Positions 1 through 51,214 of a stretch of DNA of 64,000 nt are shown piece after piece. The first letter of the stretch is position 1; the number at the start of each line of letters is the position of its first letter. Under the pieces are notes generated by a model. That model was given only the letters and a program-made list of their open reading frames with translations, was not told the origin of the DNA and searched no databases. The position numbers were made by a program, and so were the translations under genes. Source of the stretch: Ruditapes philippinarum (taxonomy: Eukaryota); contig NW_026852705.1 in assembly GCF_026571515.1 (NCBI RefSeq), positions 1 through 64,000 on the forward strand. Direction: 5' to 3'.

Positions 1-694
1 TTTTTCACGTCAATTACTCTATAGAATATGACGATTTAATTGTTAGAAATAGTTGTGAACAATATTCAACACTGATTTCACTGTCTAACGAGAAGAGATA
101 GTACTCATTTCAACTTACAAACGATTGCATTTTAATCGAAAGAAATTAAGACCAATGCATTCATCATGTACTCGATGATCTCAATATTAAGTTCAATATC
201 AAGAACAGAATTTTGCCTTCATACTTGTTATCAGAACAAATAGCTGCATGTTTCACTACATATCGAAAAAAAATGTCTAGCTAGAAGGATTTGAGAAATA
301 TATGTTCTTATCTATCTAAGTATATGCACTAACAATTCGGATTTCATCTTTCTAGCCAAAAAGATTTTAGAAAATGAACATATTCACAAAATCTGATCAT
401 ATCCCGAAAGCTAAAAAGGAAAGTCAAAGATATTACTCACAATCTCATTGCAGCGATGTTACCTCTTCAGCGGCTAGAAGTAAAATGACGCAATTTTCTT
501 TTTTCTTACAATGATTGTGTTATTCTAGTGTTGTGTTACCGCTTCAGTAATCTAGACAAATTTTATCTAATTTACAAAAAAACCTCGGTACTAGGTCCCC
601 CAATAGCTCAAAACAGCTATTGTACTATCTGCTCAAAGGCAGGGGTATCACAAGGCACCACCTTGCTCAATGTAGCCTAGTTTAGGATTTCAAT

Positions 695-799
695 TAACTC
701 ATTCACTCCGAGAGAATTTTTGCCCCGACTTTCACATAAGCAAAATTCGAGGCAAAATTTCTTGCTCGAAACAGGCTGAGTCAAGCCTTAAATGTCATT
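695..799 (-). ncRNA. Third, diverged omegaRNA copy (guide AUUGAAAUCCUAAACUAGG...)
   Basis: 93/105 nt identical to 6845-6949 with no gaps. The substitutions are largely structure-preserving (AGGUU/GACCU becomes AGGCU/AGCCU), and the terminal 39 nt are invariant. Confidence 0.85.
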
Positions 800-997
800 C
801 ACAGTTTGTTTGCTTGGCATCAACGTGGGTGTTGGGAATTGAAAATCAAATTAATGATAATTATGATGATACCAGATTTGATTCTAGTCAAATGAATACA
901 AGACAAGATAATGAATAACATCAAAATCAGAGTCTGATTTCAGGTGTTGCTCTGCTTTTGTACCGACTTGCAACGGTTAACCAACTCAAATTTTGAA

Positions 998-1186
998 TAA
1001 CTCATTCACTCCGAGAGAATTTTTGCCCCGACTTTCGCATATGTAAAATTCGAGGCAAAACTTCTTACTCGATGCAGGTCGAGTCAAACCTATAATGTCA
1101 TTTATATTTTTATGATGAAAATGGAAAAATGTTCAAATACTTTAGCATAATATTTCTCGCACCATTCACGTCTCGATGTGTTTCAT
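998..1186 (-). ncRNA. Second omegaRNA copy plus the last ~25 codons of Fz2 (guide UUCAAAAUUUGAGUUGGUUAAC...)
   Basis: 998-1186 matches 6845-7033 except for one substitution (1073 T vs 6920 G); the flanks differ on both sides. Confidence 0.85.
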
Positions 1187-1392
1187 TTCATACTTTTTAG
1201 AACCAAACGAAACATTTGACCCATACAAGCTACATTCCATTCCTAAAAAAATTAAAAGCGTTCAAGCACTTTAGAAAAATGTTTCTTGCATTATTGACAT
1301 CTTCATGCTTTTCATTATTGCAATTGCTTAGTACCTTTATGAATCTAAGTAGCTTATTTGATTGCATTCTACTTGCCAAAAAAAAATACGTA

Positions 1393-1517: not shown

Positions 1518-1970
1518 AAAAATCAAATTTACTATCATGATAAGAATGAAAAAGCAAATTCAACCATTGAAATTACAGTGACAAAATGATTAGTATATGA
1601 TATTCATTTTGAAAATAAAAAAAAAAACATTTTGTGCATTGACTTTTCATGGTGTTTCTTTCTTCTTTATCTCAAAATTTTACGTTAATACAAAAAAATT
1701 CACAAACTTGACAAGCAATGTTTATTTTCTTCTTACAGCACACAAACAATTTTACATTTTGTTCCGACGCTCTGATTTTACACGGACTTGCGACCGTTAG
1801 CAAACATTTAACAATTTATCTTTCAAACAAGCATTGAAGAAAAATTGAAAAAATGTTTGCTAGTATCATTCCCGGACCAAAACGTTTTTTTATATGTCAC
1901 TGAATGAACATTTTGATAAGACCACTGTAAATGATTTCGCCTCATCAAACTAAAAGAGTCAAACTTTTTT

Positions 1971-4900
1971 TCTGCCTGAATGGAAATGTGTTCATGACCA
2001 AAATCAAGTAACATTATGTAGCGTGTATAACCAACTCGACTCAACCCACCCTTCAATCTCTCGTCTATCCTTCGAGAGACCAATCTGGACTGATATCGCA
2101 CGCCATACAGCGATGGGAATAGAGCGCTGATCACAGACGGAGCATTGGTTGTTCGAGCTGTTTATACACGTATTATAGCTGTAACAAGCAGACTAATTGC
2201 ACTATATTCGCCAAACAGCCAGCGAGTAATAGTGGCGGGTCAGAGACCACATTGACACTCTGCTTGCGCTAATGTTACATTAAACACCATTCAGGCAAAA
2301 TGCACAGAATTTTTTCTACTAACTTTGCCTTGTTAGCAGAAAAGTGATTTCACCTCATCACTTCAGAGACACAATTTTAACGTCTTGACTCAACGGAGTC
2401 AAAATGCATACTGAACCAAATTTATAGTTTATAGTCATTTCGGACTGAATAATTTTGATTTGATATGAAAGTTACCGAAAGAGAAAATATTTATACTTTC
2501 ATATCATGTACTAACTTTGCCTTGTTAGCAGTATAGTGATTTCACCTCATCACTCCAGAGACACAATTTTAACGTCTTGACTCAACGAAGTCAAAATGCA
2601 TACTGAACCAAATTTATAGTTTATAGTCATTTCGGACTGAATAATTTTGATTTGATATGAAAGTTGTCGAAAGAGAAAAATTTATCCTTTCATATCATGT
2701 ACTAACATCTACTTTGCCTTGTTAGCAGTATAGTGATTTCACCTCATCACTTCAGAGACACAATTTTAACGTCTTGACTCAACGAAGTCAAAATGCATAC
2801 TGAACCAAATTTATAGTTTATAGTCATTTCGGACTGAATAATTTTGATTTGATATGAAGTTACCGAAAGAGAAAATATTTATACATTCATATCATGTACT
2901 AACTTTGCCTTGTTAGCAGTATAGTGATTTCACCTCATCACTTCAGAGACACAATTTTAACGTCTTGACTCAACGAAGTCAAAATGCATACTGAACCAAA
3001 TTTATAGTTTATAGTCATTTCGGACTGAATAATTTTGATTTGATATGAAAGTTGTCGAAAGAGAAAATATTTATACTTTCATATCATGTACTAACTTTGC
3101 CTTGTTAGCAGTATAGTGATTTCACCTCATCACATAAGAGACAAAATTTTAACGTCTTGACTCAACCAAGTCAAAATGCATACTGAACCAAATTTATAGT
3201 TTATAGTCATTTCGGACTGAATAATTTTGATTTGATATGAAAGTTGTCGAAAGAGAAAATATTTAATCTTTCATATCATGTATTAGCTTTAACATTTTTT
3301 TTATCTGCCTGAATGATCAAAACCAAGTAACATTATGTAGCGTGTATAACCAACTCGACTCAACCCACCCTTCAATCTCTCGTCTATCCTTCGAGAGACC
3401 AATCTGGACTGATATCGCACGCCATACAGCGATGGGAATAGAGCGCTGATCACAGACGGAGCATTGGTTGTTCGAGCTGTTTATACACGTATTATAGCTG
3501 TAACAAGCAGACTAATTGCACTATATTCGCCAAACAGCCAGCGAGTAATAGTGGCGGGTCAGAGACCACATTGACACTCTGCTTGCGCTAATGTTACAGT
3601 AAACACCACCATTCAGGCAAAATGTTCAGACTTTTATCTACTAACTTTGCCTTGTTAGCAGAAAAGTGATTTCACCTCATCACTCAAGAGACAAAATTTT
3701 CATGTCTTGACTCAACGGAGTCAAAATGCATACTGAACCAAATTTATAGTTTATAGTCATTTCGGACTGAATAATTTTGATTTGATATGAAAGTTACCGA
3801 AAGAGAAAATATTTATACTTTCATATCATGTACTAACTTTGCCTTGTTAGCAGTATAGTGATTTCACCTCATCACTCCAGAGACACAATTTTAACGTCTT
3901 GACTCAACGAAGTCAAAATGCATACTGAACCAAATTTATAGTTTATAGTCATTTCGGACTGAATAATTTTGATTTGATATGAAAGTTGTCGAAAGAGAAA
4001 ATATTTAATCTTTCATATCATGTATTAGCTTTAACATTTTTTTTATCTGCCTGAATGATCAAAACCAAGTAACATTATGTAGCGTGTATAACCAACTCGA
4101 CTCAACCCACCCTTCAATCTCTCGTCTATCCTTCGAGAGACCAATCTGGACTGATATCGCACGCCATACAGCGATGGGAATAGAGCGCTGATCACAGACG
4201 GAGCATTGGTTGTTCGAGCTGTTTATACACGTATTATAGCTGTAACAAGCAGACTAATTGCACTATATTCGCCAAACAGCCAGCGAGTAATAGTGGCGGG
4301 TCAGAGACCACATTGACACTCTGCTTGCGCTAATGTTACATTAAACACCACCATTCAGGCAAAATGTACAGACATTTATCTACTAACTTTGCCTTGTTAG
4401 CAGAAAAGTGATTTCACCTCATCACTTCAGAGACAAAATTTTAACGTCTTGACTCAACGAAGTCAAAATGCATACTGAACCAAATTTATAGTTTATAGTC
4501 ATTTCGGACTGAATAATTTTGATTTGATATGAAAGTTGTCGAAAGAGAAAATATTTATACTTTCATTCATATCATGTACTAACTTTGCCTTGTTAGCAGT
4601 ATAGTGATTTCACCTCATCACTTCAGAGACAAAATTTTCATGTCTTGACTCAACCAAGTCAAAATGCATACTGAACCAAATTTATAGTTTATAGTCATTT
4701 CGGACTGAATAATTTTGATTTGATATGAAAGTTGTCGAAAGAGAAAATATTTAATCTTTCATATCATGTATTAGCTTTAACATTTTTTTATCTGCCTGAA
4801 TGATCAAAACCAAGTAACATTATGTAGCGTGTATAACCAACTCGACTCAACCCACCCTTCAATCTCTCGTCTATCCTTCGAGAGACCAATCTGGACTGAT

Positions 4901-5922
4901 ATCGCACGCCATACAGCGATGGGAATAGAGCGCTGATCACAGACGGAGCATTGGTTGTTCGAGCTGTTTATACACGTATTATAGCTGTAACAAGCAGACT
5001 AATTGCACTATATTCGCCAAACAGCCAGCGAGTAATAGTGGCGGGTCAGAGACCACATTGACACTCTGCTTGCGCTAATGTTACATTAAACACCACCATT
5101 CAGGCAAAATGTACAGACATTTATCTACTAACGTTGCCTTGTTAGCAGAAAAGTGATTTCACCTCATCACATAAGAGACAAAATTTTCATGTCTTGACTC
5201 AACGAAGTCAAAATGCATACTGAACCAGATTTATAGTTTATAGTCATTTCGGACTGAAAATTTTGATTTGATATGAAAGTTACCGAAAGAGAAAATATTT
5301 ATACTTTCATATCATGTACTAACTTTGCCTTGTTAGCAGTATAGTGATTTCACCTCATCACATAAGAGACAAAATTTTAACGTCTTGACTCAACCAAGTC
5401 AAAATGCATACTGAACCAAATTTATAGTTTATAGTCATTTCGGACTGAATAATTTTGATTTGATATGAAAGTTGTCGAAAGAGAAAATATTTAATCTTTC
5501 ATATCATGTATTAGCTTTAACATTTTTTTATCTGCCTGAATGATCAAAACCAAGTAACATTATGTAGCGTGTATAACCAACTCGACTCAACCCACCCTTC
5601 AATCTCTCGTCTATCCTTCGAGAGACCAATCTGGACTGATATCGCACGCCATACAGCGATGGGAATAGAGCGCTGATCACAGACGGAGCATTGGTTGTTC
5701 GAGCTGTTTATACACGTATTATAGCTGTAACAAGCAGACTAATTGCACTATATTCGCCAAACAGCCAGCGAGTAATAGTGGCGGGTCAGAGACCACATTG
5801 ACACTCTGCTTGCGCTAATGTTACAATAAACACCATTCAGGCAAAATGTTCAGACTTTTATCTACTAACTTTGCCTTGTTAGCAGAAAAGTGATTTCACC
5901 TCATCACATAAGAGACAAAATT
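1971..5922. repeat. Higher-order tandem array A-B5-A-B2-A-B2-A-B2-A-B(partial); AB2 period ~740 bp
   Basis: Unit A (~315 bp) at ~1972-2297, 3304-3619, 4046-4361, 4791-5106 and 5531-5843. Unit B (~192 bp) starts at ~2317, 2509, 2700, 2897, 3089, 3639, 3831, 4381, 4577, 5126 and 5317, with a partial copy at 5863-5922. Confidence 0.95.
3304..3619 (-). ncRNA. Putative structured ncRNA, unit A (representative of 5 near-identical copies)
   Basis: Nested inverted repeats: TGCCTGAATG/CATTCAGGCA ends; GTAACATTA/TAATGTTAC; long stem CGTGTATAA-C-CAACTCGA..CAACC / GGTTG-T-TCGAGCTG-T-TTATACACG; AAGCAGA/TCTGCTT junction; hairpins TCTCTCG/CGAGAGA and CAGCG/CGCTG. Much higher GC than its surroundings. G-U pairs mostly favour the minus strand. 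Confidence 0.55.
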
Positions 5923-6844
5923 TTTGAGATAGTTGAGTCTACAGCGACGATGTTAACACATCGAATGCTAAACGTAGACTGAACTGAAATCTAAACGTCT
6001 GAGGTTATATAACAACAAAAATAATGAAATTTTTCAGAAATTAGTTTTTCTGCTTGTGGTCTCACATACCAATTTTTTATGTGTTCCAATCATATATTTG
6101 TTGATATATCATATTCAACATTCTTTTTTTCAATGAAAAACGAACATTCTTATTCACGATTTGTGAATTCGAACGAATATAAAGTAAATTGAAAATGTTT
6201 ACTTTTTCTGTTTTGTATTCAGTCATTACTGCAAGAGAGAAACAGCATTAACACAAATTGATTAATATATAAAATTTTTACAGTAATACAAATTGATAGA
6301 AAGTATGATAACATGTTTCTCGGGTTTGAAATAGCGGATTCAATCAATTCAAAGTTAAAATGATAAGAAGATATTTTTGTCAAGAAGCTGCTTGGAATTA
6401 AAATATCATGATTGCAGATGAACATTGAACAATTTCAGAAATGAAACCAATAATAAACTAGAAACACATATTCGCATTTATACATCAGTGCAGTAAGAAA
6501 ATCATAGACCGTGATTGAATTTCATTTTTGTTAACACTAGAAGATTAACGTTGAACAGATGTCAAAAAGTTAAGTCAATTACAGTAATCGACATAAAAAA
6601 TGCAAGAAATGACCTTCTTGATCAACAAGTTGAAAAAAAGAAAATCTTTATTCTTTTTGTCCATTTATTTTCTAATCATACTATCATCAAAACAATAATG
6701 TCAAGAAATGTCTTTTTGGTTAAGTCGTAGAAGAACTCGACGTTCCAAACCCGCAAAGTGTTGACTTACTAGTTGAGGTAAAACCAAAACCACCGAATCC
6801 AGCAGTTTGGATTGGTTTCTGATGAGGAATACCGACTATTTTGA

Positions 6845-6949
6845 TAACTCATTCACTCCGAGAGAATTTTTGCCCCGACTTTCGCATATGTAAAATTCGA
6901 GGCAAAACTTCTTACTCGAGGCAGGTCGAGTCAAACCTATAATGTCATT
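6845..6949 (-). ncRNA. omegaRNA scaffold, copy adjacent to Fz2 (guide starts at 6844 going leftward: UCAAAAUAGUCGGUAUUCCUC...)
   Basis: Lies immediately 3' of the Fz2 stop. Minus-strand fold: hairpin AGGUU-UGACUC-GACCU; long stem UUUUGCCUCGA/UCGGGGCAAAA; loop UGACUC can pair with the terminal GAGUUA (pseudoknot). Ungapped homology shared by all three copies ends at GAGTTA. Confidence 0.88.
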
Positions 6950-6956
6950 TATATTT

Positions 6957-8393
6957 TTATGATGAAAATGGAAAAATGTTCAAATACTTTAGCATAATAT
7001 TTCTCGCACCATTCACGTCTCGATGTGTTTCATATTTGCACTTGTCGCAATAAAATGTTTCATTTCCACCCAATTGTTTGTTCTTTACTCCACAATTCCC
7101 ACATGTCATTGATGTGTAACTTTCATCTTGAACGATTACTTCGCAATTTGTATCTCGAGCTCTATGCAGCAATCTCTCTCTGAATTTGTAGTGTTGCCAG
7201 CATAACAGGTCTCTGTTGCTTCTCTTTGATAAATGTTTCGGTCTGTCTTTTCTAACAATTGAAGAGACTGATATTTTACCAAGAACTGTGAGCTTGTAAT
7301 GTTTCACAAGATAAGAACATAGTTTCAGATGTATGTCATTCACGTAAGTTTTCAATTTGAGATGTAGTTTCTTTAACTGACCGATTCGGTCATTCTTTGC
7401 TTGTGTTTGATTTCTCTGTATAGCGAGTGACAATTGTTCATGCACTCTATCAATTTTGTCATGAAGTCTGTAAATTATTCTCTCCTTATCTTCTTTGCGT
7501 CCGACTTGAAAGCATTTCAAATTACTTGGGTCGTAACATGTTGCGAATGTTCTACCACCAGGATCAATTGAGCATATTGAGTCTGATGAGTTAACATGTA
7601 TTTGTCTAGTACATATGGGATCACATGGAATATGCAAAACAAATTTGCCATTTGCTCGTTTGCTAATCTTCATATCACGACTAAGTGGTGGCAATTTTGA
7701 TACATCTTTTGAAATTTTGAGATACCTTTCTTTATAGTTCTTGCTTGAGTGTGAAAAGCTAGCTGGCATCAGAGCTATTCTCGATTTTCGAAAAAAGTCA
7801 TCGGCATTGTCTTTTGTTGTCAACAACCGTACAAACTGTTGTTGAACTTCGAATGATCCTTCTCGTAAAAAAGTAGTATCCTTATTGTTTAAAACAACTT
7901 TAGATTTCTTTTGGTTAGACTGTGCTGATTTGTACATAGCACAAAATGTTTTGCAAGCAGTCCCCTTGATACATGTCATCTTATTGTCGAAAAACCATTC
8001 ATCTTGGGGACGTCTGTATTCTGTTGGTATGTCACTTGCATTCGTTTTACTTACAACCTTTTGCAAGTCGAAATGCTTCGGTTTGAAATTTTTCTCTTTC
8101 ACTAAGTAATTGCACCAATTGTAAGCATAATTACTTACTTTGAGCATTTGATTCAACGTTCGTTTTTGTTTCGGTGTTGGTCTAATACCAACAGAAAAAG
8201 TACACATTACCTTATCTTTTGATTTTAAAAACTTCGATTTAGCTTCCAAGTCTGAGTAATGCGTTTTGCTTGTTTGTGAGCTATCGCCTTTAATTTCAAA
8301 CATTTTTACTTTATCAATCCAATTTTTTAATGTTCCGGAACCTTTGACAAAAGCAGCGTTCCACAATATCAATGATTCGTGTTTTCGCTTCAT
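6957..8393 (-). CDS. Fz2: Fanzor2 (eukaryotic TnpB/IS607-derived RNA-guided DNA endonuclease), ~478 aa, intronless
   Basis: The ORF track gives 6957-8468 from a GTG; the first ATG at 8393 gives MKRKHESLILW..., resembling (from memory) the N-terminus of mollusc Fz2 such as MmeFz2. Motifs: N-terminal FSVGIRPT...LKVSNYAYNWC; RuvC-I SIDPGGRTF; RuvC-II VLGKI with G at the canonical E position and the relocated Glu in VQDESYTS; Zn finger CGNC...CDKC; RuvC-III RDVNGARNI. No stops or frameshifts. Confidence 0.95.
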   Translation of the reverse strand: MKRKHESLILWNAAFVKGSGTLKNWIDKVKMFEIKGDSSQTSKTHYSDLEAKSKFLKSKDKVMCTFSVGIRPTPKQKRTLNQMLKVSNYAYNWCNYLVKEKNFKPKHFDLQKVVSKTNASDIPTEYRRPQDEWFFDNKMTCIKGTACKTFCAMYKSAQSNQKKSKVVLNNKDTTFLREGSFEVQQQFVRLLTTKDNADDFFRKSRIALMPASFSHSSKNYKERYLKISKDVSKLPPLSRDMKISKRANGKFVLHIPCDPICTRQIHVNSSDSICSIDPGGRTFATCYDPSNLKCFQVGRKEDKERIIYRLHDKIDRVHEQLSLAIQRNQTQAKNDRIGQLKKLHLKLKTYVNDIHLKLCSYLVKHYKLTVLGKISVSSIVRKDRPKHLSKRSNRDLLCWQHYKFRERLLHRARDTNCEVIVQDESYTSMTCGNCGVKNKQLGGNETFYCDKCKYETHRDVNGARNIMLKYLNIFPFSS

Positions 8394-9552
8394 GTTGTAA
8401 TGCGGATTATACTGACAGCTAACTATATATACTTTTTTTTCTAATACTTTTTTCCAATTATATTTCACTTATGCTTGTTCCAACAAATTCGAGAAAAGGG
8501 GTCGCTCGGAGCGAAAGAGTTAAATAAAAAATCAACAACGATTGTTAACTGTATAAAACATTTACTGTCAAAATCAACATGAGTAACAAATATGATCGAA
8601 ATTGAAAAAAAAATGTTTACCTTTTGTTTCATAAATATTCATCAGTGATCACTGTCAACAGTTGAATTGCTGAAATACACAACGCAAATTCATAGTCTAA
8701 ATATCAAGTAATGATCGATCAAGATACATATTTTTTTGCAGTAACAAATGTTATAGGTTTAGTAAAGAATTTAAGTACGCTAACATTTTTGCCGAGATTA
8801 AATAAAAATAGATTGAATCTTTCTATTTACAATAGACTACATATTTCTTGCATTTTACACGATATGATATCTACAGTACCACATTATCACCATTGATTAA
8901 ATATTGAAGAGAAAATATATAGAAAAAATATTGTAGATCCTTTTCACTGTCAAGTTAATTTGCAATAAGAATAAGCGGTTTTATTCAAGCAAAAATATTT
9001 TCAAAAAGCCTAGGTCAAAATAAAGATTTACATTAAAAAATAAAACACCAACACTTTATCAGCAAACAAATTTTTGACAAAAAAAATCGTAGAACAATGT
9101 TGATCTACTAAATCTATTCAGTGATAAATTTACCACTTTATTTCAATTTAAATTCATTTGTCAAAATAAAGTTTTTATATGTGATTTATATTTTCATCAA
9201 ATGTAAAATGAAATCGGGTTCGCAGACAAATAAACACGAAGAAAAAAATACCATCATTCTCGATACACAAAAGCGAACAGATTTTTTTTTCCTCTTGAAA
9301 ACATGAAATATTTGCACCAAGTAGCATTTCAAAACATGATCCGCTGTTTTACACTAAGTTTTCGAGCGTAGAAAATGTCAACAATTGATATTTTCCTACT
9401 GTGTAGATATCGTTTGGAGAAATAAACCATGAAAGCTTTTTTCAATATTTTTTCAAACATGTCCAATAAAAAATTGATCTAAATCCATTTTTCCCAGGCA
9501 AAATATTAACATCATACTGAATGTAAATTTTACAAAACATAAATCTAGATCT

Positions 9553-9770
9553 AACAAAACATTTCGCTAAAATATTTTAAATCGCTATTCAACTGACTTT
9601 CTGTACTCCGTAAATTTGACAAATAATTGTGTCTATCTACTAAAATATTCACACCATATTAAGTCTGCATTTTACAAAAAAATAAATCAAACAAAACATT
9701 TCGCTAAAATATTTTAAATCGCTATTCAACTGTACTCCGTAAACTTGAAAAATAAACTTGTCTATCGGGC
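9553..9770. repeat. Direct repeat (~80 bp x2)
   Basis: AACAAAACATTTCGCTAAAATATTTTAAATCGCTATTCAACTG...TACTCCGTAAA at ~9553 and ~9690. Confidence 0.8.
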
Positions 9771-46090: not shown

Positions 46091-47278
46091 TTACTTGAAC
46101 TCATTTTCTAAAAGGAAAGCTATGAACTTTGCGTGCATTTGTTTTGCATGGACTGCATTGTCAGTTTTTGAAGCTTTCCGTAATACTTCATTGTTTTCTA
46201 TGATTTCTCTTACACCAATCTGTGGCATCTTCATATCGTCCACCTTCATTAAAGTGTTTGTCAGAGCAACATATCTAGGATCGTTAATTGAAGTATCAAA
46301 TTTTTCCCCAAACTTTCCAAAGAATCTTGGAGACTCAACCCATTTAGGAGTCACTGAATCGGTATTTGCTGAGGATTTTATAGGCCCAGATGGAAGAGAC
46401 GCATAACGTACGGATTTCGTTGGACTAGATGACCTTGACTTTTCTGGTGATGCTGACTTACTATTGGAGCCGTTCACCGAGGGAAATCTGAATTCAGTCT
46501 TTATGTCGTCTACATCATACTTGTGAACTGTTGAACTGCTTGTATTCACATAAACACCACGATTTGGTAGTTTTGTTTTGTCAGACGGAATGTTAGCACA
46601 CTTTGTCCTCCCGTTACTATTTTCGCCCCTTTTAACAGCACTTTTAATGGTACCTTTATAGTTTGTAGAGCTTTTCTGACTTGTAGCTTTATTTGATTGC
46701 CTCGTAGCATACTTATTAAGATTTAGAACTGTACTTTGTCTCGAAGTCCTCGAAGTTCTTGAATCTGAACGTCCAGCGTCATCACTGGAAACCTTTTTCT
46801 TATCTACTTTTGAACTTAATCTACTAGCCCGTGACCCTGGTCTAGAAATAGGATCCTCACCAACTGGACTTTCACAAGAACTTATTTCATCCATTTGTGG
46901 TACTCGAATTGTCAGCACCTTTTTCGGCCTTTCAGCATGCGTCTTCTCAATAACTTTTCTAGCGGATGCCATGAACTGTTTCATCATCTTATCTTTATTA
47001 TTTTGCCTCTCTACAAATTTTTGTTTTTCATATTCATGGTTGGTAAGAAATTTGTACCTTTCTCTTCCAAGTTCCAGCTGCCTCGAGTACAACATTCTTT
47101 CCTCCGTTACATTTTCAGTCAGATTATTAACACCGCGAGCAGATTTACGAGGTAAGTTATCACTTTCCCCTTTATTAATCCAACTATTTATTTCTTTGAT
47201 AGTTGTAGATTTATCCTTTTTCACAGAATTACGACGTCCAATGGACGGGGCGCTCTTAGATAAAGTTTTCCTCTCCAT
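46091..47278 (-). CDS. Uncharacterised Ser/Lys/Arg-rich protein, 395 aa (paralog of 50342-51214)
   Basis: Long single-exon ORF; N-terminal coiled block ENVTEERMLYSRQLELGRERYK and C-terminal DPRYVALTNTL are shared with the neighbour. Confidence 0.85.
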   Translation of the reverse strand: MERKTLSKSAPSIGRRNSVKKDKSTTIKEINSWINKGESDNLPRKSARGVNNLTENVTEERMLYSRQLELGRERYKFLTNHEYEKQKFVERQNNKDKMMKQFMASARKVIEKTHAERPKKVLTIRVPQMDEISSCESPVGEDPISRPGSRASRLSSKVDKKKVSSDDAGRSDSRTSRTSRQSTVLNLNKYATRQSNKATSQKSSTNYKGTIKSAVKRGENSNGRTKCANIPSDKTKLPNRGVYVNTSSSTVHKYDVDDIKTEFRFPSVNGSNSKSASPEKSRSSSPTKSVRYASLPSGPIKSSANTDSVTPKWVESPRFFGKFGEKFDTSINDPRYVALTNTLMKVDDMKMPQIGVREIIENNEVLRKASKTDNAVHAKQMHAKFIAFLLENEFK

Positions 47279-50341: not shown

Positions 50342-51214
50342 TTAAAACACTATATTGTTTTCTTCCATAAAAATTTTCACTTTTAGTTCTAATTCCTTCC
50401 GTGCCTCTTTTCCTCCAATCTTAATTGGTTTTCGTAAAGCTTCTATATTCCTTATAATCGTTTGTACATCCGTTTTGCAGTCCGTTTTATAATTTTTTGA
50501 CAGTGAATTTTCAAGTGCAAAAAACCTTGGTTCTTTGGATATACTCATTTCATTTGTCTTTTGATTTCTAGCAGAAATAAAAGATGGGAAGCTATGAGAA
50601 GAAACAGAACGAATGACTTTTTCATTCCCTGCAGTTGATGGCCGTGACCAGTCAGTAGTCATGGCTAAGGGGGTCCAGTCTTCTACTTGTACCTCGCCAG
50701 TTTGGTTGAGTAACTTTGTTTGAGCGGGAACTGTACGAGGACGGTTGTTTACATTCCCTGTTGCAAAGTTTTCTCTACGTGGGGAACCAGCCTCAAATTG
50801 AACAGTTTTTGGTCGAATCATTGGTGCTATGAACATAAGAGATGAGGCTGAATGTGTGTCACTTTTTGGTCCATCCGCCATGAGTCTCCTTTCAGCAGCG
50901 GCTGGAAATGATGCACTTTGTGGTCTATTAAATTTTATCCTAAAACCTTTGCGTTTTTGTTTATCTTTAAATGTCTGTATTTCATGATCGTATTTTGATA
51001 ATATTTTGAACCGTTCTTTCCCTAATTCCATCATTCTTGCTCGAAGAAGTCTTTCCTCTGTGATATTTTCTGCAAGTTGTCCAGAGTGAATGCGAGATGT
51101 TTCGGGCTCATGCTCTTTACCACTTAAAACCCATTCCTCAATGTCATGTAAAACTGATGTTTTCTTTGACTTCAATCGTCCTGCTGGTGCACTTTTTATT
51201 CTTGGAGGGTGCAT
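50342..51214 (-). CDS. Uncharacterised protein, 290 aa, with repeated RPx[ST] motifs (paralog of 46091-47278)
   Basis: Long ORF; a 5'UTR intron is likely (acceptor ~51238, donor ~51582). Motifs ENITEERLLRARMMELGKERFK and EPRFFALENSL. Confidence 0.85.
   Translation of the reverse strand: MHPPRIKSAPAGRLKSKKTSVLHDIEEWVLSGKEHEPETSRIHSGQLAENITEERLLRARMMELGKERFKILSKYDHEIQTFKDKQKRKGFRIKFNRPQSASFPAAAERRLMADGPKSDTHSASSLMFIAPMIRPKTVQFEAGSPRRENFATGNVNNRPRTVPAQTKLLNQTGEVQVEDWTPLAMTTDWSRPSTAGNEKVIRSVSSHSFPSFISARNQKTNEMSISKEPRFFALENSLSKNYKTDCKTDVQTIIRNIEALRKPIKIGGKEARKELELKVKIFMEENNIVF

Follow-up and report, generated by a model that had tools for sequence, protein, structure and literature searches.

An orphan omegaRNA scaffold in Ruditapes philippinarum, probably the remnant of a sister subfamily of mollusc Fanzor2* elements

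Mollusc Fanzor2* elements were described by Yoon et al. (2023) as cut-and-paste elements with inverted repeats, an RNA scaffold that takes in the target-site duplication, and a pseudoknot predicted to precede the guide (PMC10711439). In Mercenaria mercenaria, the RNA of MmeFz2 comprises a first stem S1, a second stem S2 and a pseudoknot (PMC12923547), and TTTA was given as the TAM of MmFNuc by Jiang (2023; PMC10530073). Both the pseudoknot and the rule that the duplication falls within the scaffold are already published for this family (PMC10711439, PMC12923547). Further from molluscs, the structure of ApmFz2 shows a pseudoknot (PMC11832414), and ghost loci of SpuFz1 give rise to omegaRNAs that support editing (Saito 2023; PMC10432273).

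Here we describe a stretch of 64,000 nt from R. philippinarum (contig NW_026852705.1; hereafter the window) that holds one intact element of this kind and several gene-less pieces (Table 1). The intact element, 6845–8522 on the minus strand, is 1.68 kb long, with one nuclease gene, inverted repeats that are identical at 18 of 21 positions (6845–6865 and 8502–8522) and TA at both ends, a layout that a blunt insertion between T and A would formally produce just as well. The nuclease matches Pfam PF07282, and its DPG motif, shifted glutamate and terminal aspartate are invariant or nearly so in 29 relatives. It shares 71% identity with a Mercenaria protein (P0004) and 49–51% with Dreissena proteins, and a sister protein that is 92% identical (P0002) is on record. 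Only one open reading frame of at least 80 amino acids occurs in 6845–8522, with no transposase frame in the element; with inverted repeats present and no serine-recombinase tnpA, it does not match the canonical IS607 Fanzor2 layout. ApmFz2 lies in an IS607-type element without inverted repeats. Given this kinship of the nuclease with a Mercenaria Fanzor2, and a scaffold homologous to the MmeFz2 RNA, the element and its scaffold are, judged by sequence, an added member of the mollusc Fanzor2* family.

Table 1. Features of the window discussed in the text (c1–c3, scaffold copies; tw1 and tw2, twister-like motifs)
Feature	Position	Strand	Remarks
Element X, structured repeat	591–690	.	directly after c1 guide; closing stem 680–676 with 595–591, three hairpins
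Predicted c1 guide	675–694	-	start 694, or 693 by the published MmeFz2 boundary; placed from the TA boundary
Right-end inverted repeat and TA duplication	695–715 (TA, 695–696)	-	18/21 identical to left end 8502–8522
3′ pseudoknot strand	701–695	-	predicted; overlaps right-end inverted repeat and TA
c1, orphan omegaRNA scaffold	695–807	-	homologous to c3 only from stop-codon position to right end (non-coding)
Predicted long stem S2	706–771	-	from folding
Predicted stem S1, AGGC/GCCU	788–785 with 776–773 (span 773–788)	-	linker U784; one compensatory pair, 785/776
5′ pseudoknot strand	783–777	-	predicted; adjoins S1
AAUGACA motif	793–799	-	just 5′ of first stem; same motif at 6943–6949
tw2, twister-P3-like	908–984	-	between c2 and c1; RF03154, 27.9 bits (gathering score 39.9)
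c2, scaffold copy	998–1186	-	last 24 codons, scaffold and right end; overlooked in the first-pass annotation
Divergent Fanzor C-terminus remnant (HEDVNNARNI)	1230–1334	-	tblastn 64% over 25 aa, E 6e-4
tw1, twister-P1-like	1764–1814	-	RF03160, 28.1 bits (gathering score 67.2); predicted cut near 1809/1808
c3, scaffold and right end	6845–6949	-	gene-linked; predicted guide from 6844
Intact Fanzor2 gene, 478 codons	6957–8393	-	catalytic-motif residues D302, E449, D484 (P0001 numbering)
Left-end inverted repeat, TA duplication (8521–8522) and TTTA flank	8502–8524	-	TTTA, predicted target motif

The orphan copy c1 is 87% identical to 6845–6957 over 113 nt (blastn). Our recount of 695–799 against 6845–6949 gave 12 ungapped differences in 105 positions, the number reported in the first-pass annotation, and these comprise nine transitions and three transversions. 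That annotation had also read the first hairpin as AGGUU/GACCU changed to AGGCU/AGCCU, and had noted that the loop UGACUC and the 3′ GAGUUA are the same in both copies and complementary over 6 bp. On the minus strand both readings hold, with AGGCU/AGCCU in c1, AGGUU/GACCU in c3 and G-U as one of the six loop-to-end pairs. A search of the window for the inverted repeat, allowing up to three mismatches, returned four matches, three right ends and one left end, with no left end near c1, and tblastn found no Fanzor coding remnant upstream of c1. The motif AAUGACA also follows the stop codon in Mercenaria loci, where it is not part of the MmeFz2 scaffold as published. Over 704–1000 a contig of run X2 agrees with the window at all but two positions, so the sequence of this region is real.

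The proposal that c1 is an omegaRNA scaffold with a terminal pseudoknot finds support as a predicted fold, and distant homologues keep the pseudoknot. First, c1 has a folding z of -4.8 and a predicted folding energy of -38.3 kcal/mol, against -31.8 kcal/mol for the gene-linked c3. Second, a metagenome scan of 23 of 64 parts, from which the best 80 loci were kept, contained five loci that look like close relatives (L001, L002, L004, L013 and L014). Our scaffold alignment, A3, used L013 and L014 and excluded L002, which ends at the gene, and L001 and L004, in which no scaffold was recognisable. Across c1, c3, L013 and L014, four scaffolds that amount to two lineages, the 7-bp helix between loop and scaffold end is paired in 26 of 28 cells (slid controls, 21–39%), with a C-G to U-A change in the L013/L014 helix, and 16 of 35 pairs of the consensus fold change on both sides; on the same four scaffolds, 84 of 500 shuffles reach the observed pseudoknot score. 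Third, the MmeFz2 scaffold, as given in the supplement of PMC10432273, and other Mercenaria loci match S1, S2 and the 3′ helix by eye. In the L014 scaffold at 262–370, the pseudoknot is partly broken, and the loop can pair with the flank just beyond the right end.

Other searches with the scaffold returned little. Rfam holds no family that matches it, the 30-nt right end has no match in the species genomes, and a scan of viral contigs yielded 80 distant loci, none of which was used. An 18-nt repeat pattern found in three viral contigs was set aside as chance, its surroundings being unrelated and further matches lacking.

The first-pass annotation had based structural selection on covariation at two pairs of the first hairpin. 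Only one of them, 785/776 (U-A to C-G), changes on both sides; the other change, at 777, alters one side only, and base 777 could just as well form a seventh pair of the pseudoknot, with 701 (A-U or G-U). For this junction base, 701 is the better partner in MmeFz2 and L013 and 784 in one Mercenaria locus, and because a 5-bp stem with a fully paired 6-nt loop would have no linker, one junction pair would have to open. With the 12 changes placed at random, a simple null applied post hoc, at least one two-sided pair change is expected with P 0.09–0.22, and for the 12 pseudoknot bases to remain unchanged P is 0.21. Unlikely by chance is the invariance of the last 39 nt (P 0.0025, again post hoc with a simple null), and 21 of these 39 are the inverted repeat plus TA. 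The invariant GAGUUA is thus also transposon end and duplication, a second constraint that the first reading had overlooked.

Some of these figures speak for c1 as a neutrally decayed copy of the 6845–8522 element, its pattern owed to chance and to conservation of the inverted repeat: there is a single double change, the invariance of the pseudoknot is not significant, and 84 of 500 shuffles reach the pseudoknot score. What speaks against neutral decay is pair breakage. Not one of the 37 pairs predicted for 6845–6949 is broken in c1, against 4.2–4.5 expected (P about 0.002, in a post hoc test with a simple null and a structure predicted from the same sequences), and leaving out the last 21 or 39 nt does not remove the deficit; moreover, c1 pairs at two sites that are mismatched in c3. 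In the reverse direction, 2 of 39 c1 pairs are broken in c3 (P 0.06–0.07, under the same reservations). Pair breakage is a stronger signal than the covariation cited before, and the first-pass annotation had not used it. It argues that c1 is not merely a randomly decayed c3, and we regard neutral decay as very unlikely; the test gives no date for the selection.

Structural selection therefore survives in part: the differences look filtered by structure, and covariation is not something that the two sequences show. The further step, that c1 is a functional RNA now, is unsupported, because selection on an active sister lineage before gene loss would give the same pattern; c1 also has no left end, and RNA reads show no discrete transcript. 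An origin from a paralogous Fz2, which had been offered as a possibility, is plausible, as contigs aligned to c1 carry upstream letters like a Fanzor stop region.

For the boundary between scaffold and guide, the flanks of the copies are informative. The intact element is flanked on its left by TTTA, which occurs at both of the two sites with a readable left flank. The base that follows the terminal TA is A, T and T in the window copies (694, 997 and 6844) and G, A, A, A, A and T in six Mercenaria right ends, drawn from about 37 records in the supplement of PMC10432273. Five of ten Mercenaria records there have a recognisable left end, all five preceded by TTA, three of them at one shared site. 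Together these sequences suggest that the scaffold ends at the TA duplication, as the first-pass annotation had assumed, with an uncertainty of one base in the guide start, because in MmeFz2 the scaffold as published extends by one more base. Because the base after the terminal TA varies among copies, the ‘TAG’ motif of MmeFz2 may consist of TA and a G that is really the first base of the guide, counted as scaffold in the published sequence. If the scaffold does end at TA, TAG would contain a guide base fixed in the construct, and the target range of MmeFz2 would be wider than reported.

The history of the gene-less copies was followed in contigs and reads of four runs, aligned to 450–1950 at 85% likeness; we examined 40 of 144 variants, 12 of 34 indels, 23 of 115 loose ends and 22 of 199 pieces, and copy number and empty-site alleles rest on the aligned contigs. 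The third copy, c2, has a single difference from 6845–7033 over 189 positions. One contig of run X2 departs from the window sequence at 1000 and represents an empty site, with TTTA before the c2 flank. At 1186 some contigs continue through the remainder of the Fanzor gene, and in another the match to host DNA starts only at 1179; 1179–1186, at the left edge of c2, is an 8-nt microhomology. From the contigs at 1000, 1179 and 1186, c2 probably inserted recently at a TTTA site and then lost its left part by a deletion at the microhomology. A retrocopy was rejected, as the empty-site contig shows that the flank predates the insertion. The predicted guide of c2 matches the empty allele beside tw2, and the empty-site flank does not occur elsewhere in the window.

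The C-terminus remnant at 1230–1334 has related copies elsewhere, seen as variant letters in reads, in which the usual HRD motif, as read by eye, is restored; its homology starts at nearly the same codon as that of c2 (477 and 480). The first 8.5 kb hold four Fanzor-derived pieces, which share one strand; the remaining 55 kb hold none. An array of 192-bp tandem units, interleaved with several copies of a GC-richer block of roughly 300 bp, separates the scaffold cluster from the intact element (about 2030–5940). Elsewhere the window holds a direct repeat of about 130 bp with 80% identity (9500–9766), two long single-exon open reading frames without a Pfam match whose N-terminal parts are alike by eye (46091–47278 and 50342–51214, both minus strand) and a sulfotransferase open reading frame (PF03567; 59081–60217, minus strand).

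We favour, as the probable account of c1, a gene-less right end from a sister subfamily of the 6845–8522 element, with a predicted scaffold fold and by now a passive remnant. The anatomy of the element, the Mercenaria protein, the MmeFz2-like scaffold, the absence of broken pairs and the conserved pseudoknot helix all point this way. So do the 92% identical sister protein, the missing left end and the loose ends of run X14: among the loose ends listed, two X14 contigs aligned to c1 exit at 797 into 19 letters like the Ser-Ser-stop end of a Fanzor, a hint that a sister subfamily has a gene of its own. Only 300 nt away, c2 sets a precedent for an insertion that later suffered a deletion.

Published relatives suggest how the system works. 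A transposase acting in trans would move the element into TTTA sites; a transcript over the right end would fold, with the S1 loop pairing with the end of the repeat and the duplicated TA, and the bases next to TA would act as guide. The nuclease would then cut empty alleles, which carry TTTA and the guide sequence, and spare filled ones, which read GAGTTA and the guide sequence. In c1, the 12 differences would have arisen and been filtered during the active life of the lineage, and a later deletion would have taken the left end and the gene, as apparently happened in the younger copy at 998–1186.

Several observations run against this account. The 19-letter loose end of X14 may sit on c1 rather than c2 through a tie, and the limits of c1 coincide almost exactly with those of the non-coding scaffold, which in c1 has a better predicted fold than in c3. 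In addition, the twister-like segment and the spacer, 789–973, recur in identical or nearly identical form with at least two variants of the first stem, and one contig type, in runs X2 and X14, links a c1-like 5′ end to sequence on the tw1 side (joint 804 to 1782). This recurrence and this joint look more like a module than a single accident.

RNA reads bear on whether c1 is passive. From an RNA run, 386 reads aligned, on both strands and in 278 cases only partly, with a depth of about 30 over 705–806 and no sharp start or end at c1 among the 386. This silence is weak evidence, because a 150-nt cDNA library of which about 4% was read is ill-suited to small RNA. The reads would fit a working, trans-acting ‘ghost’ omegaRNA, transcribed by read-through from a host promoter and loaded by Fanzor2 from intact copies, the twister motifs then being incidental parts of a host repeat. 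The intact predicted fold agrees with such a role, and the ghost omegaRNAs of SpuFz1 set an example of it (PMC10432273). The ghost elements described there keep both inverted repeats, whereas c1 has one; the reads, on both strands and mostly partial, may derive from paralogues; and the c1 guide has no target elsewhere in the 64-kb window (0–1 mismatch over 12 nt behind TTTA). We hold present use in trans to be unlikely.

Both twister-like motifs score below the Rfam gathering score. They are the sole matches in 64 kb and share the strand of the scaffolds, and each has a scaffold copy 3′ of it. By eye on the Rfam alignments, and with a descriptor for the 3′ half, the pairing of P2, P4, PK1 and PK2 and the conserved loop bases fit both. 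In tw1 all core elements can be assigned by eye, with a 5-bp P2 that contains one U-U mismatch, and the general-acid adenine is present. In tw2, P2, P4 and both pseudoknots can be assigned by eye, and the general-acid position is G (U923/G922); a diverged copy of tw2 in the RNA reads also has G there, and its P4 is apparently broken. The Rfam-based descriptor, written after tw1 and tw2 had been seen, finds 2 matches in the window, whereas shuffled windows give 0.03 each and the 164 fetched loci, 785 kb in all, give none. The two motifs are homologous and thus not independent; they share a stretch of only 37 nt, and their P4 and PK2 differ in compensating ways. Twister stems tolerate flaws, bivalves carry twisters, and a change of the general acid to U or C abolished cleavage in five of five natural cases (PMC11662667); the passages of that paper available to us do not cover an A-to-G change. 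Neither motif matches the inverted repeat, which removes them as transposon left ends, and tw2 has no match in the viral contigs.

Element X, directly beyond the c1 guide, has a folding z of -2.4 on the plus and -1.3 on the minus strand. Diverged copies of its part 622–690 occur elsewhere, with variant letters and with loose ends on both sides; changes among copies of the element look compensatory, and a long U run follows on the minus strand. It matches no Rfam family at E up to 10 and nothing in the viral contigs, and by-eye fits to the layouts of HDV-like, pistol, hammerhead, hairpin and twister-sister ribozymes, tRNA and U7 failed.

Two readings of the twister neighbourhood suggest themselves: a host repeat in which TTTA-seeking elements become trapped, and a guide cassette punctuated by ribozymes. 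Taken as a cassette, 695–1814 would run from tw1 through the Fanzor tail, scaffold c2 and its guide to tw2, spacer, scaffold c1, its guide and element X, with twister cleavage freeing scaffold-plus-guide RNAs and the module kept or spread as a unit. Both twister matches of the window fall here on the scaffold strand, the descriptor separates them from shuffled sequence, and their P4 and PK2 differ in compensating ways. Contig joints 804–1782, 692–1666 and 654–901 (the letters between are not given) suggest related loci that retain the order twister, scaffold or spacer, element X, and the four Fanzor pieces cluster on one strand. The motifs, for their part, are homologous and under their gathering scores, and the descriptor is post hoc; tw2 has G as general acid, as does its diverged copy with the apparently broken P4; c2 resembles an ordinary late insertion; and the predicted cuts would leave guide 3′ ends untrimmed. 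No sharp ends occur in the RNA reads, which are not a cleavage test, and a low-sensitivity search with five twister-loop 8-mers found no twister in Mercenaria Fanzor loci. We therefore regard a cassette of this kind as quite unlikely. The same doubt attaches to its fuller form, which we consider equally improbable, in which the cassette is a guide-RNA array from different Fanzor2 subfamilies, cut from one precursor by twisters and perhaps element X, that supplies guides in trans or spreads in the manner of retrozymes.

A natural twister-flanked scaffold would make one possible route by which eukaryotes cut omegaRNAs from longer transcripts directly testable. We found no twister-flanked Fanzor or TnpB scaffold in the literature. 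Metazoan non-LTR retrozymes, known in a mussel, are ribozyme-punctuated repeats (PMC7229834); those are tandem repeats with hammerheads, unlike the window, where the spacers are not repeats of each other, no hammerhead matched and 1–2300 holds no tandem array. The RAGATH-18 reRNA is alike in being a TnpB scaffold first found near twister-linked genes, and unlike in that the link is one of neighbourhood and not of processing (PMC11061315).

Returning to the reading of c1 as a remnant, the closest relatives of the window system differ in what they share with it. The nearest solved protein is ApmFz2 (PDB 9b0l; E 1.7e-21), whose omegaRNA likewise pairs a 5′ loop with the last scaffold bases; ApmFz2 is a viral Fanzor2 with a 247-nt RNA, unlike the window system (PMC11832414). 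The ghost Spu-1 loci resemble c1 as gene-less scaffolds of related but distinct sequence, possibly used in trans; they have both inverted repeats, belong to Fanzor1 and have no pseudoknot, whereas c1 has one end only (PMC10432273).

MmeFz2/MmFNuc is closer; the 71% identity given above is to P0004, its Mercenaria paralogue. MmeFz2/MmFNuc shares with the window system a 478-aa nuclease, a scaffold of about 100 nt past the stop codon with S1, a long S2 and a terminal pseudoknot (PMC10432273, PMC10530073, PMC12923547), a similar left-end sequence and a TAM that equals the TTTA flank of the window element (PMC10530073). The scaffold sequence differs, c1 is without gene and left end, and in MmeFz2 the scaffold is published with an end one base further on (CAG) and the TAM given as TAG. 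Our copies enlarge, by natural scaffold variants, a family that already serves genome editing, with ready-made tests of the pseudoknot and of S1 swaps. The exact right-end motif is absent from the readable part of the supplement of PMC10711439, whose figures 4A and S3 may show the same layout. With the mollusc Fanzor2* elements described in that paper, the window system has in common the inverted repeats, the target-site duplication in the scaffold and the predicted pseudoknot, and in what is accessible of that description we see no essential difference.
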